NCBI GenBank assembly: GCA_965649765.1
Contig: OZ287751.1
Location: 61,752,001 to 61,816,000 of the forward strand
Direction of reading: 5' to 3'
DNA length: 64,000 bases
Source: Bispira polyomma
Lineage: Eukaryota
Below, one piece after another: positions 1 to 64,000 of this stretch; position 1 is the stretch's first letter; every line of letters starts with the position of its first letter. The notes under the pieces are model-generated. The model searched no databases. It had not been told where the DNA came from and saw only the letters and a list, made by a program, of their open reading frames with translations. The position numbers and the translations under genes were made by a program.

Positions 1-713
1 TCGTTCCCAAAGCAGACATCCTGAAGACGTTGCCAGACGTACAGGCAAGGGTCAACGAGAGGCTAGCCGAGTACAACCTCCAGGCCCAGGCCGTATTTAC
101 CCAAGGTAAGGCTGCTCTCAGACAGAAGTCAGGGAGATTTAATACTACAGACATACCGAACAGCAACCCGAAGACTAGGTGGGCAAACGAGGGGTGGACG
201 GGTACTTCTTCGCGTAAACAACCACCTTATGATGAGTTGTCGCTTCCTCAGTGGGCATCTGGCCAGTTGGCCAATACTCTCCAGGTCACGGACCCTCTGG
301 TCTCGAGAGAAATTATACAGCAGGTCATTCTATCCCTCAGGGACGCCGCGTCACTACCATGGGAGGTCGTCCGAACGGCCTGGGCATTAAACATGACCGA
401 GATTGAAGAAGATAGATTGTCCTGGGGGGACACAACGCAGTGGGCCCTCAACAGGCTCAGTGCGTCACAGCTAGCTATGGTGAATTCTAAAACCACCAAT
501 GCTTCATCTACTCATGTCGGATCAACAGCCAAGGTCATTTGCAAATTGTATAACTCCGGAAAGTGTTCGCATAAAGCAGATCATAGCCAGTATAAGCATG
601 TGTGTTGGCACTGTGCTACCGTGCTTCACAAAGACGTATACCACCCAGAATTTAAGTGTTATAAGTCCAACTCAGCTAAACAGGCAGAATCAAGCTCTTC
701 TTCTACCCACTAG
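1..713 (+). CDS. gag: Gag-like protein of E1 (5'-partial)
   Basis: YDELSLPQW...W..MTEIEEDRLSW core and C-terminal CKLYNSGKC..H..YKHVCWHC..H Cys/His finger, homologous to gag of E2/E3/E5. Confidence 0.85.
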   Translation, partial: VPKADILKTLPDVQARVNERLAEYNLQAQAVFTQGKAALRQKSGRFNTTDIPNSNPKTRWANEGWTGTSSRKQPPYDELSLPQWASGQLANTLQVTDPLVSREIIQQVILSLRDAASLPWEVVRTAWALNMTEIEEDRLSWGDTTQWALNRLSASQLAMVNSKTTNASSTHVGSTAKVICKLYNSGKCSHKADHSQYKHVCWHCATVLHKDVYHPEFKCYKSNSAKQAESSSSSTH

Positions 714-3746: not shown

Positions 3747-4727
3747 TTTCAGGATCAAACCACATCACACAAAGATTCACAGACTCAGCATGGCAGAGGA
3801 TCGACTGTGCTTTGCGTCCAAAGACTACACAGACTTACAATAGCCAGTTTAGAACCTTCATCTCATTTACTTGCTATGCTGGGATAGAAGAAATTACCAC
3901 ACACTCATTGATTGCATTTCTAAAATACTTGGTACAAACAGGGGCGTCACCCAACATGGTTAATAACCATCTTGCAGTCATTAAACATATGGCCAAGAAG
4001 TTGTACTGGGATACAAAAATTTTTGAAAACAATACAGTGTCTATGTTTACTAGAAGCTTGACACATACATCACCATTTAGACCTTCACCTAAAGGAATTT
4101 TCCACATTGAACACTTATTACTGATCTCCAAAGCTTGTGATATTTTAAGAGACCCACCTCTATATAGGGCCAGTTTCATGCTAGCTTTCTTTGGATTCTT
4201 GAGAATATCCAATATAGTCCCTCATTCCAGATCCAAATTTGATCCAACTCGTCACTTTCTAAGGAAAGATATAATCTTTGGCCACCCAGGTGCACACTTC
4301 ATCTTGAAGTGGGCAAAGAATTTACAAATTAGATCACAGTTTCACATTATACAGATACCTTTATTGGACAACGTTTTACTATGTCCAGTCAAGGCCATAC
4401 AGACATTATTGAAATCTAGACCTCTGTCACCTGATGCCCCACTTTTCGTCAGTAGTACTTACCCACACCATCCAATTGTAGAAACACATGTGCGTTCTGC
4501 ACTAGCTTCAATACTTACACATGTGGGAATTCCCACCAAATAGTTTCCACACATTTAGAAGATCAGGGGCAACATATGCCTTTAATAATAACGTGTCACT
4601 TCAAAACATCATGGCACACGGCCTCTGGAGGTCATCTGCAGTCTGGTCATATTTGCATCAGAATTCTCAAGCAACTTCTGCTGTCCCTCTCACTTTCGCC
4701 TCCTCTATACCTAAACTTCCTTCCTAG
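3743..4727 (+). pseudogene. Tyrosine recombinase of E1, one frameshift near 4540
   Basis: FFGFLRISN (R), KWAK, CPV in ORF 3743-4543; FHTFRRSGAT, HGLWRSSAVWSY in ORF 4521-4727. Confidence 0.92.
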
Positions 4728-32469: not shown

Positions 32470-32607
32470 TACAAGGCAACGCCCCAGCGTTGGTGGGTTC
32501 AGTTCGGGGAACCAGACTGTTCGTCACGCCTGGCTGCGTTTCACTATAAAAGGCAGGAAAATTTAAATCTCCCTCCTTTTCGTCAACCGTCAGCAGAAGA
32601 ACAACTT
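32470..32607 (+). repeat. Terminal repeat A1 of E2 (contains TATAAAAG 32545-32552)
   Basis: 138 bp, 5 mismatches to A2 by eye. Confidence 0.95.
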
Positions 32608-32647: not shown

Positions 32648-33675
32648 ATGCCACGAATTAAGGTTTACAGTTGTGCAAAATGTATGGGGAAACACGCTAG
32701 GCCAGTTGGTAATAAATGTACTCGGGTATTGCATGAAGAGTCTGCTTCCGAGGACGAAATCGAAGGGGCAGCTTCAGAAGCTCCTGATAATCTGGCTGCT
32801 GTTTCTAGTAAAATATTGCTGAAATTAGAAAGCATGGGACAAATGATGGAACGATTAGATAAACGTGTTTTCGTCATGGAGGCGGCTCTGAGCACGGACT
32901 CTACTAAAACTCAGGTCAGTGCGATTCTCGATGTTAGTCCAGTGACTGCTTCGCTTGAAAAGGTCAATACTGTAAGTGATGATAATGTGATTCCTAGCAT
33001 TGAGTTCTTGAAGAAAAATACCTGCATATAGACCCAGGTCGAGCAACGGCTAGTTGAGCTTAAAGAAATTAATGAAAACCCGAAAAGAGGTAAGATCAAG
33101 TCTCAGAGAGGGGGGGGGGGGGTCGACGTGCTTGTCAAGAGGGTAGTCGAATGGCCCCAAATCATGTTCTGTTGGACAATTTTGAGACACGTCCAAGTTA
33201 CGATGACCTGTCCCTCAGCCAGTGGGTCTGTGGCTTTACCAGAATAATTCAAGACGAGCAAAAGCCGGAAATTAAGGAAATCATGTTAGATTACATGGCA
33301 GGTTTAATGGAGGACTCCCAGGATTTTTCGTGGGAGGCAGCCAAAGCCTGCCATGCGGTCGTGTTGACCATAATGGAGATGGACAAACTTCAATGGACGG
33401 AAGTCGATAAATTAGACCGGTTTAGGCGAGCCCACGCCCAGAGACACATCTCTAGTAGTAGCAGTAGCTATAACAATACTCGTAGTGGCAGTAGTAGTAA
33501 CAAGACTGTGGGGATGGGGAAACAGGGCTCGGCTAAATGTAAGTTTTATCAGGAAGGCACATGTAAATTTCCATCTAGCCATAAAAGTGGAAATACATTT
33601 TTCAAACATGTTTGTGAAACTTGTGCTGGAGCACACAAGAGTAATAACTGTAACCGAAAATTGGCAAAAAACTAG
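32648..33675 (+). pseudogene. gag: gag of E2 (premature TAG 33029-33031, frameshift in poly-G ~33110-33122)
   Basis: N-terminal CxxCxxxHxxPVGxxC, core MLDYMAGLMEDSQDFSWEAAKACHAVVL, C-terminal CKFYQEGTC...KHVCETCAGAH. Confidence 0.9.
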
Positions 33676-33701
33676 GAGCCCACTGCAGAAATGCAGTGGG
33701 C
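33666..33701 (+). promoter_or_regulatory. Putative -1 ribosomal frameshift signal (E2)
   Basis: A AAA AAC, 5-nt spacer, perfect stem GCCCACTGCA-GAAA-TGCAGTGGGC. Confidence 0.8.
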
Positions 33702-36077
33702 GACAAAAAAGGTTCTGGTAGATATTTCTACAGGACAGGTTTTAAAAACTTTGAACTATTTGACAAAAATATTGCTTCCAAGATGTGTCAGTATAACAGA
33801 GGTCTACTGAGAAATACTGAGTTATAGTGAAATGGTTAAAAAACCTCGGCAAGGCATTTCTCGGGACGTAAAGCAAATTGACCCTAGTTTTGTGTACAAC
33901 ACAAATGAACAATTTGTTTCTATTGGCAGAAGTCGCACCTTTTATAGAAACAAAAGGAAGCACCCTGTGACCAATCTCGGGCCAGACCCCTGTGGTACCA
34001 CCCCCCACAAGGGCAAAACTAGTGGGGGGAGGAAAAGCACTACTGAGGGCGAGGCTTAGTATAGGTAGAGAAGGGGAGTCAAAAATTGTAGAAAAATTAA
34101 AATGTGTGACCCCAGTCCAGTATCTGTACACAATAGGTTCAAGGTATTAGATTTTTCGGAATTGATCGACTCTGTTGACACAGATAGGGCAATGCAAAAA
34201 AATCACACAGCTACCAAAAATAGTAGCTCGGTGTGACGCAATACTGTTTATACACGTGCTGGTAGCGCGGATAAAGCGAAATCAGTGGATATTGAGGACA
34301 CTGTAGTCGGTGATAAATACTCTTTTGAACTAAAGCAAAAACTCAACAAAAAAGAACTGTTAAACAGGGCAAAAAATAACCCTACATATTGTGAATGGCG
34401 CAGCCAGAATAAAGTCTAGCATGGCTTTACCCCAGTGTCCGGTTTGGGTTGTAGAATCTGGGATAGGCAGGCCAACAATTATAGTTCAGATATTTTACAA
34501 ATGCACAAGGCATTGAGAACTGATGGTAGACAAAATTTTAAGGGCTTGCAGATACCTGTTAAGTCACAATTAAACCCTGAAAAATGGTCGCATTATTTAA
34601 AGTCATATTGGGACTGGCAACTGCCGTTATTAATTAAATATGGTTTTCCCCTCGATGTGATTCGTGAAAACATTAGCCAATCGGATGGCTCCAATCACAG
34701 CTCAGCCAATGACTATCCAGAGCACATAGATCTTTATTTAAAAGAAGAATGTAACCATGGTGCCATATTGGGCCCATTTTCTAGCCCACCAATAGAAAAA
34801 ATGCATTTTTCCCCCATGATGACGCGAAATAAATCCAGCTCAAGTAATAGGCGGGTCATTGTTGACCTTAGCTGGCCAATTGGCGAGTCGGTAAATTCGG
34901 GGGCTTCTTCCAGCAAATATTAGGGTACAAAATTCATACTATCTTATCCTTCAGTTGATAATCTCACTAATGAAGTTCAAAAATTAGGCAGAGGTTCTCA
35001 GATATTCAAGGTCGACATAAGTCGCGCATTCAGGCATGTGCCTATTGATCCAGGCGACGTAGATTTGTTGGGCTTAAAGTGGGATTCCTATTACCTGGAC
35101 AGATCTCTCCCCTTCGGATTTCAGAACGGATCCACTATTTTTCAGAGAATTTTGGACGCGGTTCGAGTTATCATCTTACAGGAGGGGTTTCACATTCATG
35201 CCTACATCGACAATTTTTTATGTGTAGCTCTTCCCAGTAAAATCACTGTTATATATGACAGACTCCAAGCTCTGTTGGGTGAATTAGGTGTTACTGTCAG
35301 TCCTAAAAAATTGGTCCCTCCTGACACAAAGGTAGTATGCCTGGGCGTTTTGATAAACACAGTGGATTTTACCACTTCAATTCCTGGGGAAAAAATGGAC
35401 GAAATCAAAAAACTATGTCAAGTATGGGATCCCTCTTATATGTCTCGAAGTGCATCAAATATGCTCGGGTATACCTTAGCAGAATGCTACAGTTTTTACG
35501 GGATAACCACAGCAAGAAAAAATTCTCAATTACTACCGCCTTTAAGAGAGATCTTAACTGGTTTAGTACATTTATGCAACAATTCAATGGTACTAGCTTC
35601 TTTGCCCACAGACCTATTAATGCCCAGGTGGAACTGGACGCTTGTCTGACTGGCATGGGGGGTATATATGATGGGCAAGTTTATAAGTTAACTGTCCCCC
35701 AAAATATGTCCAAAGATAATATTGCATATTTAGGAATGATTAATATCCTTGTGGTTATTACGTTATGGGCCAATGATTGGCAAGGTAAAAGAGTATTATT
35801 TAAATGCGACAATCAAGCCGTCGTCAGCGTTCTGACCAGTGGTCGCACCCAGGACCCGGTGTTGGCTACATACACTAGGAATATTTACATGTGGGCCAGC
35901 CGGTTCGACATAGATATTAAAGTCATTCACATTCTTGGTGTTAAAAATAAGGTGGCTGACCTCCTATCCAGGTGGGATAAGATGAAAAATAATGTGCAGT
36001 TGTTGCATGAATGGGTAGGCCCTGTAAAATGGCTTCTGGCGGATGAAGCATTGTTGCAAGTAGATACTGATATTTAA
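33672..36077 (+). pseudogene. pol: pol (linker + RT + RNase H) of E2, several stops and frameshifts
   Basis: YWDWQLPLLIKYGFPLD, RRVIVDLSWP, FKVDISRAFRH, LPFG, YIDN, DACLTG, CDNQAVV, ADLLSRW. Confidence 0.93.
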
Positions 36078-36102
36078 TGGAATTTTTATGTTTTATCTTC
36101 AG

Positions 36103-37088
36103 GAAGCAATCCCATTGAGAACTTGCTGACAAGTCAGGCCTGCAAGAGGATGCACACTGCTCTAGCTGCCTCTACCTCTGCTGCCTACGACAGCATGTTC
36201 AGGCTCTTCCTAGCTTTCAGCATTTTTATGGCTTGGCCAGCCTCTCAGGTGAATGTGTTCCATATTCTTACTTTTCTAGAATTTTTAAGCTATAACAGTG
36301 TGTCTTCCTCCCAAGTGGCTAATTACTTGTCGGCTTTAAAAGCTAAATGTATTCTTTTTCATATGGATATTCAGGCTTTTTCTGACCCTAGGATTTCCTA
36401 CTACACTAGGGCTCTTCTGGTTAATAGACCTCTTCAGGTCAAGTTAAAAAGTGTCTTTGACATTCCTCTCATGCTAAATTTAGTACAAAAATGTGAAGCC
36501 ACCTGCATGGGTCTTATTTTTAAAGCTATGTATGTAACACATTTTTTCAGTTTCCTTCGTTTATCTAATTTGTGCCCCCACTCTAGGGCGGCTTTTTCAC
36601 CCCTTAAGCATCTGGCCAGGGGGGACGTTTTATTTAAACCTGGATATGTTATTCATTTGGTTAAATGGACCAAGACTTTGCAAACTAATGATGCTGTGAG
36701 GCTCTTATCTTTACCAGTCCTTCCCTCTTCGGAATTGTGCCCAGTGAGGGCCTTAAAAGCAGTACTGGCTGTGTCTCCCCCTGGCAAGAATGCCCCTATA
36801 TTTCAGTATAAAATGAATAATTCCTGGGTTCCAATGACGGATAATCGGGTAAGACGCCACCATAAAAATGTCCTGGCTTTGATGGGTATGCAGCATTCAA
36901 ATCTGACTTTCCATGCTTTCCGGCGTTTAGGGGCCACGTTCGCGTTTAATAATAATGTTCGTCTCCAGGACATTCAGCGACATGGCACCTGGACGTCAGA
37001 TTGCATGTGGCGATATATCACCGATTCTGCTCAAGTAGGTACTCAGGTGGCTGATTCTTTTGCTATGGCCCTACGAACTACCTCCTAG
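36103..37088 (+). CDS. Tyrosine recombinase of E2 (open frame; probably a spliced second exon)
   Basis: FLRLSN, KWTKT, CPV, FHAFRR, HGTW..D..WRY catalytic set; TTTTATCTTCAG acceptor ends at 36102. Confidence 0.93.
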
Positions 37089-37103: not shown

Positions 37104-37622
37104 GTGGTTTGGGACATTTCTTCTCACCTCAAACTTTAAAAGTTTATCTGTGAAATAATAAAGAATATCAAAGGTCAATAAATAAATAAAGAATCACAGT
37201 ACTTGGGGCATAAGGTCACCTTATTTTGGGGAGTACATTATGTACTCTTACACATCACTTAGTAAAAATTCTAAATTCTAATCTTTATTCAAAATCTTAA
37301 ATGCATCGACTTTAATTCAAATTTTTCAATTCTTAAACTGAACTTTTTAAATTCAAGTTAGGGTCACCTCTTTCCTTTTCGAAATTATGGTCACCTTAAC
37401 TCCAGTTTAAGAATTTAATTTATGGTAACCTTACTTTCTTAACTTATACTCACTTTAGGGTTACCCCAACTTATCTTAACTTAAGGTCACCTTATGCCCC
37501 TTCATTAACTGTATATAGTAGTTGTCTAACATGCTAGTATACTAATAAACTTGTGAACCACAGTCTTTTTCTTGTATTATAATTTTAAATCTCATAGTTT
37601 CTGCTATGGTTTCTGGGAACTG
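37104..37622 (+). repeat. Repeat B1 of E2
   Basis: ~519 bp, near-identical to 38448-38965; abuts A2. Confidence 0.95.
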
Positions 37623-37760
37623 TACAAGGCAACGCCCTAGCGTTGGTGGGTTCAGTTCGGGGTACCAGACTGTTCGTCACACCTGGCTGCGTTTCACTAT
37701 AAAAGGCATGAAAATTTAAATCTCCCTCCTTTTCGTCAACCATCAGCAGAAGAACAACTT
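37623..37760 (+). repeat. Repeat A2 of E2 (TATAAAAG 37698-37705)
   Basis: Copy of 32470-32607. Confidence 0.95.
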
Positions 37761-38447
37761 CAAAATACCCACCCCCTTCTGCCCTGTTTAATTTTTGGTG
37801 TATTAGTTTCAGATGCTCACAATATCAGTCACGGAGCAGCAGTGATCCTGTCATGCCCTGTTGTGCTAGTATAAGCCGCAGGCTCGTTCGGACCTTGTGT
37901 CTGGGCTCATCACCACAGTACTCCCGGTCGGGTGCAAGATGCGATGTATGGTTTAACATTCTAGACTCCTTGTTCTTGGGGCTATGACAAACTTTAGACA
38001 GCTTGTGACCTGGAGACTTCTGCTGTGGTGTATTATGTGAATGCCTGGATCCTGCTGTTGTGTTAAAATGTTTAATTTAGTAATTAATTATTTCCTCCAA
38101 CTGTATAATGTTATTAAGGGGTTGTATTGCTCAACCATGTAAGACTGTTGCGGTAGAGCTAGAGAGGGGAAATTCTGAGTTTAATAAACTTTACAAGATG
38201 GCTGCCTTACCATCTACCCGGGTTGGTTACCATAGACTGAAAGACTTGTGGTGGAATAAAAGTTATTAAAATATTCCGTTATACCACTCTAACCATGACA
38301 AGTTCTGCCTGTTGGCCGCTGTTCTTTTCCTTTTGCTGATGGTTCGACATAAAACTGTATTATTAATGTTTCTTTTAAATTTCTTTCAAACTTTTTACAT
38401 TTTTACATCGAATTTACACAAGTTATATGTTTTATTTACTGTGATAT

Positions 38448-38965
38448 GTGGTTTGGGACATTTGTTCTCACCTCAAACTTTAAAAGTTTATCTGTGAAAT
38501 AATAAAGAATACCAAAGGTCAATAAATAAATAAAGAATCACAGTACTTGGGGCATAAGGTCACCTTATTTTGGGGAGTACATTATGTACTCTTAAACATC
38601 ATTTAGCAAAATTCTAAATTCTAATCTTTATTCAAAATCTTAAATGCATCGACTTTAATTCAAATTTTTCAATTTTTAAACTGAACTTTTTAAATTCAAG
38701 TTAGGGTCACCTCTTTCCTTTTCAAAATTATGGTCACCTTAACTCCAGTTTAAGAATTTAATTTATGGTAACCTTACTTTCTTAACTTATACTCACTTTA
38801 GGGTTACCCCAACTTATCTTAACTTCAGGTCACCTTATGCCCCTTCATTAACTGTATATAGTAGTTGTCTAACATGCTAGTTTACTAATAAACTTGTGAA
38901 CCGCAGTCTTTTTCCTGTATTATAATTTTAAATCTCATAGTTTCTGCTCTGGTTCCTGGGAACTG
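38448..38965 (+). repeat. Repeat B2 of E2 (3' terminus)
   Basis: Copy of 37104-37622. Confidence 0.95.
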
Positions 38966-39239
38966 GAACAAATATAAGCTTACTGCATAGGTTCATTCTA
39001 AAAGGAGTTGTGAGTGTTCCTTGAAATTACACTTTAAGGAAACCTAATTTCAAAACCATCTCTCCAAACTCTGTATACTTTTAAGCTAAGGCCAACAGAC
39101 CAATTTACTTTAAGGCCGCCAGGAAAGTTTAACATCTCAGCTGAAATACTACGGTGTATTGAACTGGTTTATTTTAAATCATTTTTGCTGCAATAACCAT
39201 TAATTTCAATAGAGATTTAAACCCTGAATTCAAATAACC

Positions 39240-39660
39240 TACACTACTAACCTAAAACTGTTAAGGTGACCTTACGTCACCCTTAAAATAGTAGTAGTAT
39301 GTAGGTGGCTTTAAGTGAGCATATTTACCTTATTTTAAGTTAACCTTAAAGTGAAAACACTTTGCCTAATTAAATGTCACCTTAAACTCTTAACAATTTT
39401 ATGGTGACCTTAAGTCACCTTTGTCATTTTAGTAAATGTAAATTGTAATAGTAAAGGTGACCTTAAGTCACTCTTTAAATCTAAGTTAAAGGTTAACTTA
39501 AGTATATAAGTTGACCATAACTTCTTGGGTCACCTTATGTTGTGCGTATTAGTATTAGTGAATGTTTTAACAAAAATAACCTGTTAGTATTATATGTTAA
39601 AGTATGTATAGAAAATAAAAATGCCCAAAATGTGCTCGTGCTATTTTTCATTCGTAATAT
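39240..39660 (+). repeat. Orphan B-like terminus with dense AAGGT(G/C/T)ACCTT array
   Basis: About 9 motif copies then AATAAA; collinear similarity to 45095-45300. Confidence 0.6.
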
Positions 39661-45094: not shown

Positions 45095-45350
45095 AATTAA
45101 GTTAAGGTGACCTTAAGTCACCAGGTCAATTTTAGTAAAAGTCATCATCAATTTAAGGTGACCTTAATTAAGGTCACCAATGGTTTTCAATTTAAAGGTA
45201 AACTTAAGATGTAATTCAGGTGACCTTGACCTTTGAGTTCAACTCTTTTATGTAAATTAGTAGTAGATGTTTGATGTTTTAACACATTAACATTGCATGT
45301 TAGATAGATGTAATCAATGCTTAAAGTGCTATACGCTTGGGTTTCTCACA
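45095..45350 (+). repeat. Orphan B-like terminus with TTAAGGTGACCTTAA array
   Basis: Similar to 39395-39580. Confidence 0.55.
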
Positions 45351-49184: not shown

Positions 49185-49582
49185 ACACTAAGTACTACTA
49201 CAATATATGTAGATATCCAAGAGGTTATACACGGTTATACAACATTAAAGTTTACCATTTTAGTTACACATTACAGTGACCCGAGTTACAGGTCACTTTT
49301 AAGTTACATTTTAATACACACATTGTCAGTTGACCTTACCTAAAGGTCAATTAGTGATCTTTTGCGGTGACCTTACCTAGAGGTGAATTAATAGTTTTTA
49401 AGGTGACCTTAACTGGAGGTCATACTAATTTATAATTTAAATACATATGTAGTGACCTTAAAATCATTAATTGAGCTTGATATACACTTTAAGTCAGGGG
49501 GCAGGGGTCTCTAGAGTTACCCCATTGAATTAAAGTATACGAGTACATTATGTAAAGATATAAATTACATATACAAGACCCT
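49185..49582. repeat. ~400-bp direct repeat, copy 1 (partner 55528-55951); B-like terminus, probably minus strand
   Basis: ACACTAAGTACTACTACAATATATGTA...ATACAAGACCCT shared; GGTGACCTTA array. Confidence 0.9.
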
Positions 49583-50217
49583 CATACAAGACCCTCTGAC
49601 AGATAAAACCTAAAATGTAAAGATAAAACAATTGTAAAATACAAGTTACCAGACTAAAACAATTTTAAAACTAAAACATCGTACAATTAACTACTTAACA
49701 GGTGTGGGTGGGTGGGAAATTTCAGTGTTTCCAGTTTGTGTGTGTAATTTAAATTGAGACAGGTGAGGCCAAGTAAGTGGCTTCTAGGAGAGCTTAACCA
49801 CTGATTGGTGGTAAACACTTTCCAGGGGTTGGCAACCAGGGGGGATTCCGTGACATCATTACCTTTTTACCTGTGAAATTTAAGCTAGTACTTTAAGAAT
49901 TTTGAGGGGTTTAGAGGACTGACCCCCGTGATGCCTTAACACCACATCCTACAGTCCCCAATTCACCCAGTCCAAAGAAACACATATGTGCGGATACTTG
50001 TATTTATTTGGGGGGCTGACGCCCAGGCTCTCAGTTCTGTACCAGACTAGAAGTGGCAATTAGGACACGAAAGTTCAGGGAGGGCAGTATAAAAGAAATT
50101 GCCGCCAACTGGCAGCCATCATTAAACTAAGAATCTTACTAGGAGTAACACTGTTTTTATAAGTTTGGGGCTTTTTACTACCCTACTTTTAAGTGTTTTA
50201 GATTTTTACGTGTCATT

Positions 50218-51276
50218 ATGCCAGTGTATCATTTTGTCGTGTGTAATGTAATGCACGAGAAACCTGTGGGGAGAAACTGTCGAGCACAACAAATACAGGA
50301 GCCAGTGGCTGGTGCTGAGGGGAGTGAGACGGGCGTCGCCAGTGACTCGGACTCAGGTGACCAGGTATCATCCATTGCCGATCATGCTAGTGCTAATGTC
50401 TCAAATCAAATACTCATACAGTTGCAAGCCATGAACCAGAAGCTCGACAATATGGACCAACGAGTCCGAGTCACGGAGACGGCGCTATGCTCACCCAGTG
50501 CCTCACCGACACGTAAGACCGATTCAGTTAACATTTCCAGTACTGTGAATAGTGTTACCCCAGCTTCAGATACTGTAATTCCCACGTTAGATTTCCTTAA
50601 AACAAACTCTGATCTACAACTACAAGTAGACCAACGATTACTTCAGTTACAACAGTTGGGTCAGTTAACCGGGACAGGTAAACTCAAATATCAAAGGGGG
50701 GGTACTTCTGATGTACATATTAAAAAGAATGTTGATTGGCCACAAAATTTTGTACTCTCGGGTACCAAGAAAGTCCGACCTTCTTTTGACGACTTGTCTC
50801 TGATCCAATTTGTTGGGGGATTTACCCAGTGTATTCAAGAGCAGAGAGCTCCAGAAATTAGGGATGCCATGCTAGATTACTTAGGAAATTTGATGGACGA
50901 TGCCCATGATTTTTCATGGGAAGCAGCAAAAGCATGTCATGCTGTTATTCTCACAAATATGGAGCTAGATAAACTTAAATGGACAGACGTAGAAAAGGTA
51001 GACAGGATTCGGCGAGCACATGCTCAGCGTCAAATGCCTCCCACAAGTTCAGGTTCTGGCCAAAGCAAATCAAGCACATTCCAAAAGAGTAAAGTTAAAA
51101 CAACGGATGTAAATTGTAAATTCTTTCAGGAGGGTACATGCAATTCAACTCAAGTCATAGGACTGCTGGGCAGTACTTTAAACACGCATGTGAAAATTGT
51201 GAGGGCACTCACCAAACAAAATTATGTCGGGAAAACTGCTTCAAAAAACGGGGTAGTCACTGCAGGGATGCAGTGA
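50218..51276 (+). pseudogene. gag: gag of E3 (compensating frameshifts ~51140 and ~51230)
   Basis: VCNVMHEKPVGRNC, MLDYLGNLMDDAHDFSWEAAKACHAVIL; finger HRTAGQYFKHACENCEGTH lies in the shifted frame. Confidence 0.9.
51243..51276 (+). promoter_or_regulatory. Putative -1 ribosomal frameshift signal (E3)
   Basis: A AAA AAC, 7-nt spacer, stem TCACTGCA-GGGA-TGCAGTGA. Confidence 0.75.
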
Positions 51277-53773
51277 AAGAATTTACATGTAAACAAGATA
51301 CTGTGTATTCTAGTGAACATGTTGTATATAATACTAAGTTTAGGGAGTACTACCTATTTGATAGTAATTATATAACCAAATGTTTAAGGGTAAAAAATAT
51401 GTCAAAACTAATGTGTCTTACAAAGACGCGCTGTGTCAGGGTCAAACTAGTGTGAAAAATTGTGTGCCTGTGCCACCAGTTAACAATAAGACCCGAGCAA
51501 ACAAACTTCACACTAATGGTGTGAACACTGCTGGGTGTACAGATGAACGTGTATGCAAGAGAATAAAAACGGGTTGTCATGTCACCACAAAACTTGATTG
51601 CCATCAAAACAACCTCGAGTGTTAAAGGGGTAAACAACTTTTGACAAGTGTGGTAAAGGCGAGTTCCCCATATTGTGTGGGCACTTATAACGTGTTACGG
51701 GTTAACAAAGAAGACTTGGGGGGTTTCCCCCTTCTCATTTCAAACTCACAACAGGTTTGACACCTTGTGCACAAACACTGAAGACAATAACGACTTAGAG
51801 AAACAGAGTCCCATTGAGGGGACTTTTACCATGTGTAAACATGGTGACACTGCAATTAAAGACATTGCTCCAATTAGTGTAAATCCCAAAAACAACTCTG
51901 AGGGTAAACATTTTGTTCATAGTAAAACAATTGAAGGTGATATAATACCCCAGGACACGTATGCATTGGGTCTTAACCAAATAACTAACAAAAGACAGAA
52001 ACTGACTGAAGCAAAACATTGTGACACCTACAAACTGTGGGACGTTCAGAACTATTTAAAAGTGGGATATATTCTACTTACCAACTTGGGACAAAGAGTT
52101 ATAGACAATTCAGTGACTGGGGGCGATGTAAACATATTTACCCTACATAGACAGCTTAGGCAAGATGGTCACCCTAATTATAGGGGTTTACAAATTCCAG
52201 TAAAGTCGCAACTTAATGCTGAGGTTTTGGCAAACTATTTAACCAAATACTGGGACTGGGAACTCCCCCTACTGATTAAATTCGGATTCCCCTTAGATTA
52301 TAACCGACAATGTAGTCCTGACTCGGATCCCATCAACCATACTTCAGCTAAAAAATTTCCTACTCATGTGCACCATTATTTAAAGGAAGAGTGCAAATTT
52401 GGGGCAATATATGGCCCCTTTAAAGAAAAACCTATTTCCAATCTTCACACATCCCCATTCATGACAAGGGACAAATCCAGTTCAGACAAACACCGTGTTA
52501 TTGTAGATCTAAGCTGACCAATAGGCAAATCTGTCAATTCGGGCGTTACTCCTAACATCTATTTGAATAATGAATTTTTACTAACTTACCCCTCTATTGA
52601 TAATATCACTAGTCAAGTCCTTCTCCATGGCAGGGGTTCTTTACTATTTAAAGCTGATGTGAGTCACGCTTTTCGTCATGTGACCATTGATCCTGGAGAT
52701 ATAGACTTGTTAGGTCTTTTCTGGAAAAAATATTATGTAGATGGATCTCTCCCCTCTGGGTACAAGCATGGATCCGCCATATTTCAAAGAATTTCAGATG
52801 GAATCCGGCATATTATGCAGACTGTGGTGCTGAACTACATAGACGACATCTTATGTTGTTCAACTCCTAAGAAAATATATGCTACTTATAAACATTTACA
52901 GGTACTGCTGTCTGAGCTTGGTCTCACCCTCAGCAACAAAAAATTGGTCCCACCAAATACTTGTGTTACATGCCTTGGCATAGTCATTGACACTGTCGCA
53001 TTTACAACCTCCATTCCTGAAGAAAAATTGCAAAATATTAAGTACATATGTGCTCAGTGGAATAACAAAACACATTGTAGTAAAAGGGAACTCCAATGTT
53101 TACTTGGATCATTACTTTATGTATCAAAGTGTGTAAAATATGCACGTTTTTTCCTAAATAGGATGCTTCAGCTACTCAGGGATAACCACCAGTGTAAGCA
53201 CATAAAAATACCTATTTAAAAATACCTACATAAAAATTCAGAAAAGATCTTATTTGGTTCCAGGTATTTCTGGACAAATTTAATTGGGTAACCTTTTTCT
53301 ACCATAAACCCATTTCAGCTGTCATTGAGATGGACGCTTGTCTTACAGGCATGGGGGGAGTGTATGGCAGTCAGGTTTATACTTTAACCATCCGCCACAA
53401 ATTACAACACCTGAACATTGCTTCTATTGAGATACTGAACATCTTAGTAGCCCTTAAAGTATGGGGTGTCCAATGGCACGCCCAATGTGTGTTAACAAAA
53501 TGTGATAATCAGGCAGTTGTCAGTGTCCTAACCACAGGCCGTACCAAGGATCCTATTTTAGCATTGTATGCGCATAACATTTTTATGTTGGCAAGTCATT
53601 TTGATGTGGAATTAAAAGTCATACATATTTTAGGCCAGAACAACACGTGTGCTGATCTGTTATCCCGCTGGACCAACACCCCGGATAATTACAAAAATTT
53701 ATCCCGAATGTTGGGACATGTAGTATGGTGTAATGTTAATGTACAGTATTTGGCAGTCAATGAGCAAATATAA
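51249..53773 (+). pseudogene. pol: pol (linker + RT + RNase H) of E3, disrupted
   Basis: YWDWELPLLIKFGFPLD, RVIVDLS*P, YIDD, DACLTG, CDNQAVV, ADLLSRW. Confidence 0.93.
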
Positions 53774-53805
53774 CATGCATACTTCCTCCAGTTATTATGT
53801 TTCAG

Positions 53806-54771
53806 ATAGCAAACCTCTTCACCACTTGCTCTATAGAAATGCAACTAAACTGCACCTAGCCTTCACCAGGTCTACCAGCAGAGCCTATGCTGCCATGTAT
53901 AGGATCTACTTAGCTTATAATGCTTTCATGGAACGACCTTACAATCAGGTGACTGTATTTGACCTTCTTTGTTTTCTCGAAGCATTACATTTTAACTCTG
54001 TAAAACCAGGCCAAATGGCTAATTACCTCTCTGCTATTAAAGCTCAATCAATACTGCATGGTATTAATGTCTTGGCTTTCAGTGACCCTAAAGTTGCATA
54101 TTATCAAAAGGCTGTAAAATTGTCAGCTCCCTTAAATGTAAAATTGAAAAAAATTATAGATACCGTTATCTAACATTATTGCTGCTTCTGAAAACACCTA
54201 CCTGGGGGTAATATTCCAAGCTGTCTATTTGCTCAGCTATTTCTCTTTTCTGAGACTATCAAACTTAGTGCCACATTCGGCTAACCAGTACTCTCCCCTT
54301 AAACACCTAGTTAAGGGGGATGTCATGTTTCGACAGAACAAAGCTGTCATACTTGAAAAATGGTCAAAGACCATGCAAACCAACAACCAAATTAAACTAA
54401 TTACTATACCATGCCTTCCCGGATCTCCATTGTGCCCGGTTGGTGCCTTAAAAGCAGCAATGTCGATTACCCTGGGTGGGGAAAATGAAGCTTTATTTCA
54501 ATTCAGAACTAATCAAACATGGCTCCCCTTGACAGACACAAAGGTACAACATCATTTTTCTGACATATTAAAAATGTTACAATTACACACCTCAGGACTT
54601 ACCTTCCACGCTTTCCGTCGTTCAGGTGCCACGTTTGCTTTCAATCATAATGTAAGTATTCAAAATATACAACAACACGGCACTTGGACCTCGGACTGCA
54701 TGTGGAGGTACGTCACCGTTGACGCTGGCCAGCAAGTTGCAAATACATTCAGACATCATCTGGCTCCCTAG
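53806..54771 (+). pseudogene. Tyrosine recombinase of E3 (frameshift near 54170)
   Basis: FLRLSN, KWSKT, CPV, FHAFRRSGAT, HGTWTSDCMWRY. Confidence 0.92.
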
Positions 54772-55527
54772 CTCTACTCCTACTAAGTTGGGATTTGGGT
54801 GATTCGATCTAATGCTTGCTTGCCTACAACTGTTTTATACTTAAAGTAGTTTTACTTTCAACTGGTTTTACGTAAACTTGTTTTAGTTAAAACGTAATGT
54901 ACCAGACTTAATATCAAAAGCCACTTAATTAAAGCGTAACTTTCTATTTTAAGTTAAAGCGTAATTTCTTATACTTAATATGACTTAACTAAGAGCGTAA
55001 CTTCTTAGCTTAGTTAAAGCATAACTTCTTATACTTAGTATGTACTAACACTTAATTAAAGGTAACTTTCTCTCTTAACATATGTTGCTAGTAATTGTGT
55101 TAACAATAGCAAATAATGTAGCATGCACATATGCATGTTCAAGTGTATATAAGTGTGTGTAAACTTAACTTCTAATGTACATAGTCTAACCTCTGTTGTC
55201 TAAAGTGCATGAAATTAAATCTTAAAACATTTCTACTGTGTCTGGCCTTAAGTCTTGTTATTTAGAAAATTGATTCAATTAATGGCCACCTTAGCCCGTC
55301 TATACCATGTAAAACTGTCTGGGGTTAAGGTGACCTTAACTATCGTAAATAAAACATTTATTCAGTAAGGTGACCTTAAGCCACCTAAAAATATTAAAAC
55401 ATTAATAATGATTTTAGCAATTAAATATGTATATAGACTTGTACTTAGAATAAATGTTTTAAACCGCATTCTGAACTTGTTCATACCTGCCTTCATCTGA
55501 CCTCTGGTAATCAAGGAACTGTAATAT

Positions 55528-55951
55528 ACACTAAGTACTACTACAATATATGTACATATCCAAGCGGTTATACATGGTTACGGTTATACAACATTAAAGT
55601 TTACCAATTTAGTTACACATTACAGTGACCCGAGTTACAGGTCACTTTTTAATACAGGTCACATTTTCAGTTGACCTTAGCTAAAGGTCAATTAGTGTGC
55701 TTTTACGGTGACCTTACCTAGAGGGGAATTAATAATTTTTAAGGTGACCTCAATTTGAGGTCATACTAATTTATTATTTAAATACATATGAGGTGACCTT
55801 AAAATCAGGCCTACATTAACCGTAACTTGATATACGTTTTAAGTCTTGAAAACCCTGCCCCCTGTGGGCAGGGATCCCCCATTGAGTTACCCCATTGAAT
55901 TAAAGTATACGAGTGCATTATGTAAAGATATAAAATACATATACAAGACCC
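55528..55951. repeat. ~400-bp direct repeat, copy 2 (partner 49185-49582)
   Basis: Collinear match with small indels. Confidence 0.9.
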
Positions 55952-56771
55952 TAACCCATCACCCCTCTCCCCTCTGAGTAAAAGTGGCTCAGTCCAGTGA
56001 TGGACGGAGCCTGGCTGGGAGTATAAATATCCTTGTAAGGGGGTTGATAGGTGTCATTAAAGTGTGCTGGGAGAGAGTGTCACTTCAAATTGCGCACCCA
56101 CCTCACCCTTTTAATAACTTAAAAAGTGTTGTATATGCATATGGTAATACTTCATATATGCATGATATGTGCCCATTGACATTAATAATAATAGTGGCAT
56201 TGAGAATTATTCAAGTGTTTAAATGGTTTATCCAACTGGCTTATACGCACCAGAACGTAGTAACTGCCAATAATTGTACGTTAATACCATAGGTACAATC
56301 AATATTAAAATATATGTTAACACCATAGGTGAGACATTATAAAAATATACATTATTACCATAGGTGAGGACATTATGAAAATAGTCCAACATCAGGACAT
56401 TGTGGATATGCCAGAGACGTACATTATCAAATATATGTAATGATGATAATGACATTATTTATAGTGCACACATATATATGATGTCACATTTCATGATGAC
56501 AGATTCTCGGTTAATAATATCTATGGTATTATAAATGGTACAAATGATAGTTTTCATGATACCAGTAGTAATAATAAGCCTGGCTTATATCAGGATTTTG
56601 AACCCCATTGTGAAAATAATATTTATCATGATGGTTTTATACAAAATAATTTTTTTTTTCTTTTTTATTTGGATATTTAACGTCCACTCTAGTACCTGTT
56701 TAGGTTATATTGGGACGGGTAGTTGGAAATGCTGGAGGAAACACTGGATACAGTTGATCAAGGTTCTGCAC

Positions 56772-56929: not shown

Positions 56930-59600
56930 TATACAAAATAAACATGATATAACAGATTTAAGTATGGGCATTGATAATATTGATAGTGTTCACCCTGTAT
57001 GTAACATTATGACTATAGAAAGCAGGGGCTTTGGATTTATTCCTCACATACTGCCCCTGGCTGTGTTAGAAACTTTATGTAATAATATCGCTTTTTAGCC
57101 AAATGTCAAATGGCTTAAGGAAATTCATCATGAAGTAGAAAAACATGGTGTCCCCAATAAAAAAGGTGCTCGGTTGGCGGCACCGTCAGGTTTAAATATA
57201 CCTGTGTGGAGTCGTCTCCTAAAGAGCTACCACTTAGAAATTCTTGGTCAATATATCCAGTTTGGATTTCTGTTAAATATTGATATTATGATATTTTTTA
57301 ATTTAGTTCTGTTGATAACCTAAAATGAGCATTATGTAGTCCTGAGGGTGTTAATTAATATTTTAAGGTTGAAGTTGGCCATGAAGCAATGATTAATCCT
57401 AAAATCTATTTGATAAAATAAATTTTTCACCCCTGATGGCACGTCCTAATCTGGATGGTGGTACTCGGGTAATTTTTGATTTATCCCTGCCACTTGGCCA
57501 TAGTGTTATTAGTTGTGTATCAGCTGTGATGGCATTCCATTCACTTTAAAATATCCTACAATAGACCAGGTTGTTGAAAAAGTGCAACAATATGAACCTA
57601 ATACGTTATTATATAAAATTGATCTTCAGCAGGAATTTCGTAAGTTACGCATTGACCCCAGAGATAACCTGGTCTTGGGTCTGCGTTAGCAAGGTAATGC
57701 ATATATATATAGACGTTGGGCTTCCGTTCAGATTTTAGATGGGAGTGGCTGCCTGCCAGCTTTGTACGGATGCAGTGATGTCCACGTTAAGAGAACGCAA
57801 TATTTGGGTTATCAATTGTTTAGATGATTATATCGGGGCAAGTTCCCCCCAGTAATGCTGCAAGTTATTTTCTGTCATAAAAAAAATTGTTTCTTGATGA
57901 AAACCTTTCTATTATTATGAAAAAGCTCGAGCCTCTGGCTCCAGAAATTAATTGTCTAGGAATTATTATTAATGCCCATACTGGTAAATTAATAATTTCT
58001 AAAAAGAAATTAAATGGAGTTAAAAAGTTATGTTATAGTTAGGTAATTCCAGAATTTATAAAAAAATCGTCATTCTTGATGAAAACCTTTCTATTATTAT
58101 GAAAAAGCTCGAGCCTCTGGCTCCAGAAATTAATTGTCTAGGAATTATTATTAATGCCCATACTGGTAAATTAATAATTTCTAAAAAGAAATTAAATGGA
58201 GTTAAAAAGTTATGTTATAGTTAGGTAATTCCAGAATTTATAAAAAAATTGTCATTCTATCGTTTATTTTGAAGCAGCTAATATTCTAATTGCATTAAAA
58301 TTGTGATGTCACTGATAGAAAAATTCAATAGTGCTAGTATGATAATTAAGCAGTAGTAAACACCTTTACTTTAGACAAAGCTTGTGATCCATGGTTAATG
58401 GGCACGCATTAGAACTGCCTGGTATTATTTGGTTGCGCATAACATTGAGCTCAAAGCACAACATATAAGGTGTGTTGACAATAAATTGGCCGATATTCTG
58501 TCAAGATGGCATATATACCATGGTATGAAAATGAATAAAATAGTAGAAATACTTAAAAATTGTCAATGGCTAGACACAAAGTAATGTTAATTCCAATTTT
58601 TACATTTAAAATGCTATGCTACAGAAGCCCCAAGGAGTCATGGCTAGAAAAAGCAAATACTTATAATTTTGGAAAATGTTATACTTATGGAAACCCTAAT
58701 AGATTATGGCTAATAAACATAAAATATTTCTAAATTTAAACAAATTATATGGAAACGCCATGGAGTCAGCACCATGAAAAACAAATGTGGTACTGCTCTA
58801 AAAATAATTTAGCATCTACTACGGCGGCCATCTTGGAACGGGATGCCCTTCAGCGTGTTTCTACTCCTCTATGACTTCGTACACAGATGTCTTACAACTT
58901 CTCCTTCAGACTGTTCGTCTCTTTTATGGTGTTCATGCAATTCCCCATACCTTATTGCTCAAGAACTGTAAAGTGCTTTGTCGAGTAACTTATACAAAAT
59001 GGTCTCAAAGCTGCTTCTATTACTAACCACTTGTCTGTGCTGTTTCACTTCTCCAACGTTATATAAATTGATTAATGCTTCTTCTTCTTTTACAAATGCT
59101 GATACTTTGATAGCTTTATTTCTCTGTGCTTTTTTCGGGTTTTTCCAATTTGCTTCTCCAGTACCTTTGGCTATTAAAGAATTCGACAGAAATTGGTTTC
59201 CCACTAGGGCGGATTTGATATGGGGTTCTCCAGGTGTACACATAGTGATGACCTGTGCCAAGAACATGCAAGGGTCTGGTCAATATCAAATGGTACAGCT
59301 GCCAAGTTTACCTGGTAATATACTTTGTCCAGTGACTGCTTTAAAAATATGATTAAAACAATTCTAGCTGAGAATGAATCTCCTTTATGTTTTATTAAAA
59401 CTAAACAAGGTGTTACCCCCTCACTACCTTTAAAGCTAGGTCATTTCTTAAATTGATGCTTACCAATATTGGGTTGTCACCCAAAGATTTTGGTTTCCAT
59501 ACTTGTAGGTGAAGCAGAGCTTCTTTTGCATTTGACAAAATAACTTTTATCTGAGTTGTGTCTGATTTTGAGCTTGGGTTTATGCTGAGAATAAGGGCCC
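56930..59600 (+). mobile_element. Heavily decayed YR retrotransposon E4 (RT, RNase H, YR remnants; E1-like subgroup)
   Basis: GVPNKKGARLAAPSGLNIPVW...QYIQFGF (~57145), CLDDYIG (~57817), ADILSRW (~58489), LCAFFGF...RADLIWGSPG...LCPVTALK, GFHT (~59491). Confidence 0.85.
57891..58254. repeat. 182-bp near-perfect tandem duplication
   Basis: 57891-58072 repeated at 58073-58254. Confidence 0.92.
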
Positions 59601-59668: not shown

Positions 59669-59808
59669 TGAAACCAGCCGCCCACAGTAAGGAACTACCA
59701 CCTTTCCCACATAGGCATCGACAGGAGTCGAACTCTCGCTGCCCATAGGTGAGAGAACAGTGATTGTGAAGCGCAATGCTTGCTAACCACTAGGCCACCG
59801 TGGCCCCC
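59669..59808 (-). mobile_element. Short tRNA-derived SINE copy
   Basis: A box TGGCCTAGTGG, B box GAGTTCGACTCC on minus strand; matches 56772-56927. Confidence 0.85.
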
Positions 59809-60089: not shown

Positions 60090-61160
60090 ATGCCTGTCTT
60101 TGATTGTAGTCAATGCTTAACCAAGCATGAGCGTCCTGTCGGGCGAAATTGTGTTAATGAAAAAATTGTTGACTCTGTCTCTGGGGAGGAGATCGATGCT
60201 GCCTCAGACACTGAACCCGCAAACGGTGAGTCCGGCGATGCAGTTACCAATGCTATACTACTTCAACTGCACTCGATGAACGAATTAATGGTGAAAATGG
60301 ACCAGCGGGTTCAGAGGAATGAGGCAGCATTGGCGACGAACCTTACCAGTAGTCAGGCGAGTCATCAGGTCCCCGTTCAGGCAAGTAGTAGTTTGATTAG
60401 TCCTAGTGTTGTCAGGCCTGCTAGTTGCTCTGCTGACGTAGGTAAGAGCCCATCTATCGCTACGTCCGACAGTATAATTCCTGGCATAGATTTTTTAAAC
60501 CGGAATGCCCTAATACAGCTCCAAGTGGAGCAGAGATTGAAAGATCTCAAAACGTTGAATGAGACCACCTCGCAAGGTAAACTGAAGTCCCAGCGTAGTG
60601 GGGCGAATGAGGTATTGGTAAAGAAGGTCACCGCCTGGCCTCAAAATTACGTGCTGACGGGTAGTTCTAAGTCTCGGCCAAGCTACGATGAGTTAACCGT
60701 GTTGCAATGGGTGTGTGGTTTCGCTCGGATCGCCCAAGAGGAGAAGTCGATCGAAGTGAAGAATGCCATGCTGGATTACATGGGGGGTCTTATGGAGGAT
60801 GCCCAGGATTTTTCTTGGGAGTCAGCTAAGGCCTGCCATGCAGTCGTATTGACAAGTATGGAGATGGATAAGTTAGGCTGGCTAGAGGTAGATAAGATGG
60901 ATCGAATCCGAAGAGCCCATGCTCAGTGCCATGTGTCGAACAGTAGAAATTCCTCTGGGGCGAATGGACGGCTAGGTAACTCTAGTAGCAGTAAATCTGG
61001 CAGTCGTAAAGGTGCAATGTTTTGTCGCTTTTATCAGGAAGGAAATTGTAGATTTCCCAGCTCGCACAATACTGGAGGTCAGTTATATAAACATCGTTGT
61101 GAGACGTGTGAGGGTAGCCACAAGACTAGTGAATGTCATAAGAAAGGGGCAAAAAACTAA
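60090..61160 (+). CDS. gag: Gag-like protein of E5 (intact)
   Basis: ATG 60090; CSQCLTKHERPVGRNC, coiled coil, conserved core, C-terminal Cys/His fingers. Confidence 0.9.
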   Translation: MPVFDCSQCLTKHERPVGRNCVNEKIVDSVSGEEIDAASDTEPANGESGDAVTNAILLQLHSMNELMVKMDQRVQRNEAALATNLTSSQASHQVPVQASSSLISPSVVRPASCSADVGKSPSIATSDSIIPGIDFLNRNALIQLQVEQRLKDLKTLNETTSQGKLKSQRSGANEVLVKKVTAWPQNYVLTGSSKSRPSYDELTVLQWVCGFARIAQEEKSIEVKNAMLDYMGGLMEDAQDFSWESAKACHAVVLTSMEMDKLGWLEVDKMDRIRRAHAQCHVSNSRNSSGANGRLGNSSSSKSGSRKGAMFCRFYQEGNCRFPSSHNTGGQLYKHRCETCEGSHKTSECHKKGAKN

Positions 61161-61186
61161 GGGGCCACTGCATTGGTGCAGTGGCT
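61151..61186 (+). promoter_or_regulatory. Putative -1 ribosomal frameshift signal (E5)
   Basis: A AAA AAC TAA then stem GCCACTGCA-TTGG-TGCAGTGGC; -1 frame is open into ORF 61181. Confidence 0.8.
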
Positions 61187-63541
61187 AAAAGGGGTGAGCA
61201 AAAAAGTAGGTTCGTCTATAATACTAAATTTAAGGATGTACAATTATTTGAGAGGTCTGTGTGTCAGAAAATGTGTAAATATATGAAGGGCACCAGACCA
61301 GGTTTGAGCTATAGCCAGGCGTTGCAAAAGAATGACCCAGTTCAAAAGTATGGGTGTGTAAATAGAAGTGTTGATAATGTACAGGTAAAACAGGCAAGGT
61401 TTGACAAGAGTAAGGTGAAGATAGTACGTAACAAAAGTGACACCTTGGTGAGGCCCCTTGGTACCTCTGTGAGCCAATTGACACCCATTGTGAAGCCTGA
61501 CTCGGGTGCGAAACAAGACAAGGGGATAACAAAGGAGGTCAATTGTTCGAGATTGAATGGGGGCGAAGAGAGGCGGGTCAATGGGGGTGTGGCTGTCCTC
61601 CACTCTTGCTAACAGGTATACCGCTCTAATGTCGTTGCCGGTCGATGACAGTGAAAATGTTGACGAGCCCGTTCGATTCCTTTCTGTTACTAGTGACAAA
61701 CCCGTTAACCGAGGCAAGGCCAGGAGTAAAACTGCTTCCGAAGACAGCCCGGGAAGTTCCGAATGTTCCGATAAATACGCTCGTGCTTTGAAACAGAAAG
61801 TAAATAAGAAAGGCATGTTAGCTAAGGCTGCCTCAAATCCTACTTACAGAAAATGGCAAGCTCAAAGTCAATATGCATATGGATTCACTCCTCTCTCTGC
61901 TCTGGGCTGTGAGATTGCAGATCATGGTGGGGGAGGGCCCGAACTTTCCATATTGGAAATGCATGACTTAATTCGGGCTGATGGGAGACACAATTATGAA
62001 GGGTTGCAAATCCCTGTTCCCTCTCAATTAAGACCAGAGAGTTGGAGAAAATACCTTAAAGATTACTGGGATTGGCAATTGCCTCTCCTCATAAAATATG
62101 GATTCCCCCTAGACGTGGATCATTCAGTTCAACTGGAATCCAGTGAGATTAACCATAAATCGGCTGGGGAATATCCACAGCATGTAGAAGCTTATATGCA
62201 AGAAGAATGTGAGTTAGGAGCCATGTTGGGGCCATTTGACAAACCTCCCATTCCGGGCTTGCATTGTTCTCCCCTTATGACTAGACACAAACCGAATTCA
62301 ATTAACCGGAGAGTAATTGTAGACTTAAGTTGGCCTCAAGGGGGGTCGGTTAATGCGGGGGCATCTCCTTCCTCTTACTTGGGTGTTGAATTTTTGCTGT
62401 CTTACCCATCTATTGATAATCTCACTAGTGAGGTGGTAAAATTGGGTAGAGGATGCGAGATATTCAAGGTCGACATAAGTAGGGCATTCCGTCACGTACC
62501 CATTGACCCTGGCGACGTTGACCTCCTAGGTCTAAAGTGGAAGTCCTATTATGTGGACAGATCTCTGCCGTTCGGATATCGTAATGGTAGCACGATTTTT
62601 CGGATGGCGTGCGTTTCATAATGCACTCTGAAAATCATAATGTCCACAACTATATCGACGATTTCTTGGCGATTTCTGTTCCCAGCAAAATTCAAAAAAC
62701 TTACCTGAGATTGCAAGAACTGCTACAAGAATTGGGGTTGACAGTAAGTCAGAAAAAATTGGTTCCTCCCAGCACACAGGTTGTCTGCTTGGGCATAGTG
62801 GTGGATACTATTCGTGGTACTACTTCCATCCCGGTTGAGAAATTAAGTGAAATTAAGGATAAGTGTCAGGAATGGAAATCCAAAAAATTCTGCACTAAGA
62901 GGGAGCTCCAGTCTTTACTTGGCTTGTTATTGTATATTTCTAAATGTGTAAAGTATGCTCGTGTCTTTTTGAATAGGATGCTGGAACTATTAAGAGATAA
63001 TTACACCAGAAAGTATATTACCATCAACCCTGAATTCAGGCATGACTTAAATTGGTTTACGGCTTTTGCAGAACAGTTCAATGGAGTCTCTTTCTTCATG
63101 CCTAAGCCCATAACTGGTGAGATTGAATTAGATGCCTGTCTTACGGGAATGGGGGGTATTTTTGAGAAACAAGTGTACCAAATTAACATTCCTCCGGAGA
63201 TGCTTAACATCCTGGTAGCTTTAAAATTGTGGGTTCATAAATGGAAAAGTCGTAGAATATTGGTCAGATGTGATAATCAGGCAGTTGTAAGTGTCTTACA
63301 GACAGGGCGCACCAGAGATCCGGACTTAGCCACGTATTCTAGGAATATATACATGTTAGCTAGCAAGTTTAATATTGATATTGTTGTCATACATATTTTG
63401 GGTAAAGAAAATAAAATTGCAGATCTGCTATCAAGATGGACTGAAACTGAAGCCAACCATTTGTTGTTATTTAGGTTAGCTGGGCCTGTCCAGTGGCTGC
63501 CTGCTTGCCACAGTTTATTAAACGTTAACTCACTTATATAG
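61157..63541 (+). pseudogene. pol: pol (linker + RT + RNase H) of E5, frameshifts near 61570 and 62605
   Basis: ORFs 61181-61612, 61557-62621, 62609-63541 with FKVDISRAFRH, LPFG, YIDD, DACLTG, CDNQ, ADLLSRW. Confidence 0.93.
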
Positions 63542-63564
63542 CACGTGTTAGTCATGTTTTCCAG

Positions 63565-64000
63565 ATATACAACCTGTCGCCATCTCCTTGATGCAGAAAG
63601 CTTGTGACAGACTTGAACTTGCCTTCACCCCTGCCACTAACAGAGCCTACAACAGAATGTTCAGGCTGTTCTTGGCGTTTGGAGCCTTTATGTCATGGCC
63701 TCCTAAAAAGGTGACTGTGTTATATCTCCTAGCATATTTAGAGTTTTTAACGTTTAATGGTGTGTCGGCGAGTCAAGTTCTTAATCATCTTTCTGCCATT
63801 AAGGCTAAGTGTGTCCTCTTCCATATATCTGTAGACGCTTTCTCTGATAAGAGAATCACCTATTATAATAGAGCTTTGGCAATGCATAGACCATTGCAAG
63901 TAAAACTTAAGTCAATTTTCGACGTCCAGTTGTTGAGGTCTCTTATTATAAAGTGTGACAGCACTTACATGGGTCAAATTTTTAAAGCAGTTTATCTTAC
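63565..64000 (+). CDS. Tyrosine recombinase of E5, N-terminal part (3'-partial)
   Basis: Translates LMQKACDRLELAFTPATNRAYNRMFRLFLAF..., homologous to E2 YR; absent from ORF track because no stop is reached. Confidence 0.88.

Follow-up and report, generated by a model that had tools for sequence, protein, structure and literature searches.

A candidate −1 frameshift cassette at the gag/pol junction of Ngaro-like tyrosine-recombinase retrotransposons

According to the portions available of two published sources, heptamers of the form X XXY YYZ with a structure 5–8 nt downstream drive −1 ribosomal frameshifts (PMC12789967; PMC3835772), A AAA AAC is the gag-pro site of MMTV and HTLV (PMC12789967), and the spacers tabulated for such viruses are 6–9 nt long (PMC3835772). 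For tyrosine-recombinase (YR) retrotransposons, the available sections of the Ngaro descriptions give overlapping ORFs and mention no slippery site or hairpin (PMC3783388, PMC8547959, PMC9210276). A review, as quoted in the accessible part of PMC13003380, proposed frameshifting at the overlap between the reverse transcriptase (RT) and YR genes, and a frameshift has been suggested for DIRS-1, where the excerpts at hand describe it as experimentally undetermined (PMC5006619, PMC7192593). As far as these texts were available, the frameshift suggestions for YR elements concern RT/YR and are made without testing (PMC13003380, PMC5006619, PMC7192593). No gag-pol slippery site or hairpin in YR elements was described in the parts of the literature searched, which also included PMC3266345, PMC6681497, PMC2632668, PMC1965478 and PMC9341512; Goodwin and Poulter (2004), Poulter and Butler (2015) or Repbase may mention a gag/RT −1 overlap. 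The mechanism is textbook, and its signal seems, from these partial sources, not to have been described in the YR retrotransposons, the enzyme expression of which has so far been guessed from ORF overlaps and never measured in the portions of the literature searched.

Host elements and their gag/pol junctions

The window (the whole 64-kb stretch of DNA analysed) contains elements with similarity to RT, RNase H and tyrosine recombinase, of which four are recognisable and at least two more are decayed. Judged by their ORFs, repeats and domains, the three elements hosting the cassette described below (E2, E3 and E5) are broken copies of Ngaro-like retrotransposons. They represent different families, with RT identities of 56–65% and saturated wobble positions. 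The elements matched RVT_1, RVT_3 and phage integrase in Pfam, the integrase scores being slightly below the cut-off, and Gag was called from its position and knuckle only. RT and RNase H were found in all seven Pol relatives scanned against Pfam, and a methyltransferase or protease family in none of the seven, the sensitivity for methyltransferases being uncontrolled.

All three elements lie on the + strand. E2 comprises a broken gag-like gene (32648–33675) with a C-terminal Cys/His knuckle and the ending KN*, a pol gene (linker, RT and RNase H; 33666–36077) that begins in the −1 frame and contains several breaks, and a YR ORF (36078–37088) with 48–55% identity to the YR pieces of E3 and E5. 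Its split direct repeats, A (A1 32470–32607, A2 37623–37760) and B (B1 37104–37622, B2 38448–38965), are ordered A1-ORFs-B1-A2-B2, and the extra sequence of about 690 nt between A2 and B2 (37761–38447) sets E2 apart from textbook Ngaro elements, where A2 and B2 adjoin. The gag, pol and YR genes of E3 (50218–54771) are all broken, and a single repeat pair is visible (49185–49582, again at 55528–55952). E5 is cut by the window edge; it has an unbroken gag-like ORF of 356 codons ending KN* (60090–61160), a pol gene with two frame breaks (61151–63541; −1 frame open to 61612, RT frame 61557–62621, RT/RNase H frame 62591–63541) and a YR ORF (63552–64000) that runs past the window end. In every window copy the frame is interrupted somewhere between the junction and the RT domain; that the −1 frame extends to RT thus cannot be established from the window by itself.

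Several other features were observed in the window. Its AT richness and load of repeats suggest an animal as the host. Decayed RT/YR remnants occur at 57000–59050 (+ strand) and 18700–24600 (− strand), and the cassette was found in none of them. The segment 56772–56888 is repeated at 59669–59785, 5′ of E5, and a 182-nt tandem duplication lies at 57879–58242. A palindromic GGTGACC/GGTCACC motif recurs at 39196–39491, 45100–45141 and 55345–55384 and in repeat B of E2; its occurrences in the B repeats and in nearby AT-rich DNA are possibly solo repeats or recombinase sites.

A pattern scan for exact AAAAAAC placed the heptamers of the three junctions at 33666–33672 (E2), 51243–51249 (E3) and 61151–61157 (E5). 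Each is followed by a hairpin with the core CACTGCA-N4-TGCAGTG, starting at 33681, 51258 and 61166 with the loops GAAA, GGGA and TTGG, respectively; this pattern is its own reverse complement, and no further occurrence was found on either strand of the window (three in total). The stems are perfect over 10 bp (33678–33701), 8 bp (51257–51276) and 9 bp (61164–61185; 10 bp with a G-U pair), with spacers of 5, 7 and 6 nt. These positions, loops and stems reproduce those of the preliminary description, which had claimed a spacer of 5–7 nt and a perfect hairpin with a common core, and the −1-frame peptides that it quoted for the three elements were found as stated.

Folding of 75-nt windows gave z-scores of −8.1 (E2), −3.1 (E3) and −3.6 (E5), and none of 200 shuffles was as stable as the native sequence in any of the three. 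The 40 nt downstream of the cassette heptamers have energies of −22.8, −12.3 and −17.9 kcal/mol in the same order, compared with 0 to −8.8 kcal/mol at the other 31 of the 34 AAAAAAC sites on both strands, where no comparable stem was found. Only 7 of 928 XXXYYYZ-type heptamers on the two strands have a perfect stem of at least 7 bp at a spacer of 3–10 nt: the E2, E3 and E5 cassettes, three matches that overlap within a single run of T, and the E5 stem as it appears on the opposite strand, the last four all with a spacer of 3. The association of heptamer and stem in the window is not due to chance. A pseudoknot as stimulator was ruled out, since the 4-nt loops are variable and second downstream hairpins are not common to the elements, and no Rfam family reached its gathering score in the window.

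The heptamers of E2 and E5 are in gag phase, each with the gag stop (33673–33675 and 61158–61160) directly behind it; the −1 frame opens 12 nt (E2) and 9 nt (E5) upstream of the heptamer, without an ATG. The heptamer had been assigned to the gag frame in all three elements, and this assignment stands for E2 and E5, and for E3 only with respect to the Gag core. There, the heptamer shares its phase with the long ORF 50149–51276 and the core, and the zinc-knuckle peptide (tblastn match 51132–51227) is in a different frame, flanked by two offsetting breaks: one near 51132–51150 and a second length difference, of one extra column, before the heptamer. As written, the knuckle frame of E3 runs on into the pol peptide. 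With its knuckle off-frame and no stop directly 3′ of the heptamer, E3 taken by itself says less about phase than the preliminary description implied.

The frameshift signal is not universal in the group, as the E1 element of the same window (3–4709) lacks the cassette. Its gag ends with TAG at the gag/pol junction (711–714), and the next ORF (714–1454) continues in the same frame. There is no slippery site at this junction, the structure is weak (−5.6 kcal/mol) and 14 of the 18 nt before the TAG are pyrimidines, which suggests readthrough or a splice acceptor in place of a frameshift.

Conservation in protein relatives and in other copies

A search yielded 70 Gag relatives (34–55% identity to E5 Gag), with a complete knuckle in 48; the remaining 22, truncated or with a broken frame, were set aside. 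The C-terminus is KN* (16 proteins) or KNx* (25, with KNE in 23) in 41 of these 48, against a background of 0.7% for the KN dipeptide, the tail beyond the last Cys being anywhere from 4 to 13 residues long. The residue preceding the terminal KN is S, A, T or P in 40 of 41, compared with 74 of 311 for internal KN, as expected under nucleotide constraint (the window codons are GCA, TCA and GCA). A profile search of 50%-identity representatives added 144 proteins, with a knuckle in 69; 27 of these 69 end with KN* or KNx*, 14 have KN within a longer tail and 28 lack KN near the end, the inclusion of the KN end in the profile having slightly biased the search toward KN-ending matches. None of 13 E1-type Gags ends with KN. 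In this protein set, the KN-tail signal marks a broad clade and not the whole Ngaro-like group.

Of 210 Pol relatives found, 120 were listed, and among these six carry [HY]CxxAV within the first 150 residues, with a single further match in their remaining 75,631 residues. Four proteins (P0139, P0141, P0145 and P0146; 870–914 aa, unbroken through RT and RNase H) start with M..KKL(G/S)xHCxNAV, two more of the listed relatives carry HCxxAV and six begin with KKR. Read in −1, A AAA AAC gives KKL when a stop codon comes next and KKR when a Glu codon does, as in the KNE tails; for KKR, the Asn codon must be AAC. Three of the four KKL-type Pols align to the window from the slippery A itself (33666 and 61151). 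The remaining Pol relatives mostly begin at Met residues further along, without a common position, the first Met lying 110–478 residues from the GFP anchor, as a gene caller would give for a gene without its own start codon. These relatives are known as proteins only and have no common record for gag and pol, which were paired by dual-coding fit and by equal lengths of their longest contigs: the Gag tails of ten P0002-cluster members, read in −1, give the first ten residues of P0146, and the P0013 Gag tail likewise gives the start of P0145, the only two +1 matches both involving Gags with a shifted tail. The preliminary description had raised the possibility that intact relatives place pol in another frame or lack the stem; the unbroken Pols open with the −1-frame peptide, and the stem core can be recognised among the relatives in each of the three reading frames. 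Its proposal that Pol is a Gag-Pol fusion gains support from these −1 starts, which read into RT and RNase H.

The stem core is exposed in the −1 frame of eight proteins, in the gag frame of two frame-broken relatives (P0128 and P0284) and in the +1 frame in three of four matches (the frame-broken P0049, P0062 and P0173), the remaining one being a chance match. Readability of the core in the gag and +1 frames is not expected from constraint on a single protein frame. The core also encodes the protein motif HCxxAV, and its five wobble positions are all identical across E2, E3 and E5 (rough product probability 2e-4), RT wobble identity among the three elements being 52–56% at twofold and 23–31% at fourfold sites. 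Two of ten stem pairs have changed on both sides in the three sequences, a value reached by 128 of 500 shuffles; covariation is thin, as the stem core does not vary. In two relatives the motif reads HCL, a change that affects the innermost stem pair. Five KKR-type Pols (P0180, P0187, P0190, P0195 and P0208) continue with AASCS, VTGC, SGSC or VGSC, without HCxxAV. The stem core is therefore clade-limited, and these five Pols have the same heptamer and likely a different hairpin.

Contigs of runs X1–X3 (one study with two samples, possibly the source of the window) were placed on E5 and E2 at 80% likeness. One high-depth contig covers 61129–61273 of E5 without gaps. The single length difference among the variants listed in 60700–62100 is one base at the E5 break near 61600, carried by all covering depth of the three runs, and it brings the −1 frame into register with RT in those copies. 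A similar one-base difference was seen in contigs at the first pol break of E2. In X1, 25 contigs have a loop variant at the E5 cassette and 12 diverge right 3′ of the stem; in four of seven listed joints, the gag core is matched, a stretch is skipped and the match resumes at 61139–61157, short-sided joints being weak evidence. The E5 cassette is an island of similarity among copies. The bin containing the E2 cassette is a local depth peak in X1 (1194 vs 502 and 228), and several contigs at 83–86% span it without gaps. From a fourth run, X4, of which a small share was used, three contigs were placed, and none covers the cassette core. The absence of cassette variants among those listed does not amount to proof of invariance.

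Searches for DNA of the relatives gave 175 candidates for Gag among metagenome contigs and 28 among viral contigs, none of which was confirmed, and Pol P0146 found no match among prokaryote genomes and viral contigs. One viral and 119 metagenome loci matching the DNA pattern were rejected as chance matches, since none of the 120 encodes a Gag, RT or YR relative, although the same queries match the window.

A probable Gag-Pol fusion and the competing explanations

The cassette is real and, on the sequence evidence, likely to be functional, very probably as a programmed −1 ribosomal frameshift signal yielding RT as a Gag-Pol fusion. The pol gene is in the −1 frame, and no start codon of pol precedes its conserved N-terminal motif. 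Most ribosomes would terminate at the gag stop next to the heptamer, with Gag as their product. In a minority, held up by the hairpin while the Lys and Asn tRNAs occupy AAA AAC, these tRNAs would re-pair one base back, and reading would go on in the −1 frame across a long, variable linker to RT and RNase H, giving a minor Gag-linker-RT-RNase H product. Since no protease domain was detected, this fusion would stay uncut or rely on a host protease. A fixed excess of Gag over RT, and RT tethered to Gag, would be implied, with a bearing on particle building.

Production of Pol as a separate protein, either from a subgenomic RNA or by ribosomes that reinitiate at a downstream AUG once past the gag stop, with the hairpin as a reinitiation aid or a packaging/replication signal, is improbable. 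An in-frame Met lies 39–40 codons 3′ of the heptamer in E2 and E5, in which the gag stop abuts the hairpin, as this explanation would have it; however, the first Met of E3 comes only at codon 52, the first Met positions are scattered in the Pol relatives (the 110–478 residues given above), and the frame is open and conserved 5′ of those Mets. The conserved in-phase heptamer would also be left unexplained.

The lack of significant covariation, the conservation of HCxxAV as a peptide and the broken state of every window copy are compatible with conservation at the protein level (Gag ending with KN and Pol needing HCxxAV) or with a relic cassette, the hairpin being incidental. We consider this quite improbable, because the core wobble positions are kept where RT wobble is saturated, and KN is fixed at the stop despite a variable distance from the knuckle, with an NCN-type residue before it. 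Pol would, moreover, still need an entry route. A splice from the conserved phase-1 donor within gag to an acceptor near the junction would offer one, but it is very unlikely: there is no common acceptor, and of the 18 nt preceding the AG sites near the three junctions, 2–11 are pyrimidines, with the highest value (11) in E2 only, compared with 12–14 at the YR acceptors of E2, E3 and E5. Slippage during transcription of the A6 run, or a Gag-Pol that is natively in one frame, as in the literal reading of E3, is hardly credible, even though the knuckle frame of E3 extends into pol and the single-member proteins P0051, P0070 and P0197 read across the junction, as these three are one-off clusters or otherwise broken, multi-member clusters stop at KN, the A run is only six long and polymerase slippage requires no downstream hairpin at ribosome spacing.

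With the −1 frameshift as the preferred route to Pol, there remains that to YR. The GT donor lies at a Gly that is invariant in 27 aligned Gags and is in phase 1 at 105, 33089, 50677 and 60576 in the four elements, and CAG acceptors at 3752, 36102, 53805 and 63564 enter YR in the phase matching these donors. From such phase-matched sites, a gag-to-YR splice is plausible. The frame relation of RT to YR is −1, 0, +1 and +1 in the four copies, that of gag to pol being fixed; as far as broken copies can tell, this speaks against an RT/YR frameshift of the kind put forward in the review quoted by PMC13003380. We lean slightly toward a one-transcript programme in a large Ngaro-like clade, in which Gag would be the default product, a protease-free Gag-Pol would arise by frameshift and Gag(N)-YR by splicing rather than by an RT/YR frameshift, a sister clade represented by E1 handling the junction otherwise. 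The signal is delimited to 36 nt and directly usable in a reporter, and annotation would have Pol begin at the slip site and not at the first Met.

Comparison with retroviral and tyrosine-recombinase systems

In the available portions of the retroviral literature, the gag-pro junctions of MMTV, HTLV-1/2 and BLV have the same heptamer just 5′ of the gag stop (PMC12789967; PMC3835772), and a downstream structure and an enzyme frame at −1 are common to both systems. The spacer is 5–7 nt here, compared with the 6–9 nt tabulated for retroviruses (PMC3835772). The MMTV comparison made in the preliminary description holds for the heptamer, as far as the source extends (PMC12789967), and fails for the stimulator, which is here a plain hairpin with a loop of 4 nt and a pseudoknot in MMTV. 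Unlike in retroviruses, the host is a YR retrotransposon, and one shift would lead to RT/RNase H, no protease or DDE integrase having been detected, unlike in retroviral gag-pro.

With Ngaro-like elements of the order DIRS, as presented in the sections available, the elements of the window share the order gag, RT/RNase H and YR (PMC3783388, PMC8547959, PMC9210276), and E2 also shares the A1-ORFs-B1-A2-B2 repeats (PMC3783388, PMC8547959), differing in the separation of A2 and B2. No methyltransferase domain was detected 3′ of RNase H here, which separates these elements from PAT and DIRS1-like elements. According to the excerpts consulted, DIRS-1 of Dictyostelium is likewise a YR retrotransposon in which expression of the downstream ORFs calls for a non-canonical route; the shift suggested for it is +1 and lies between RT and YR, and its repeats are inverted (PMC5006619, PMC7192593).
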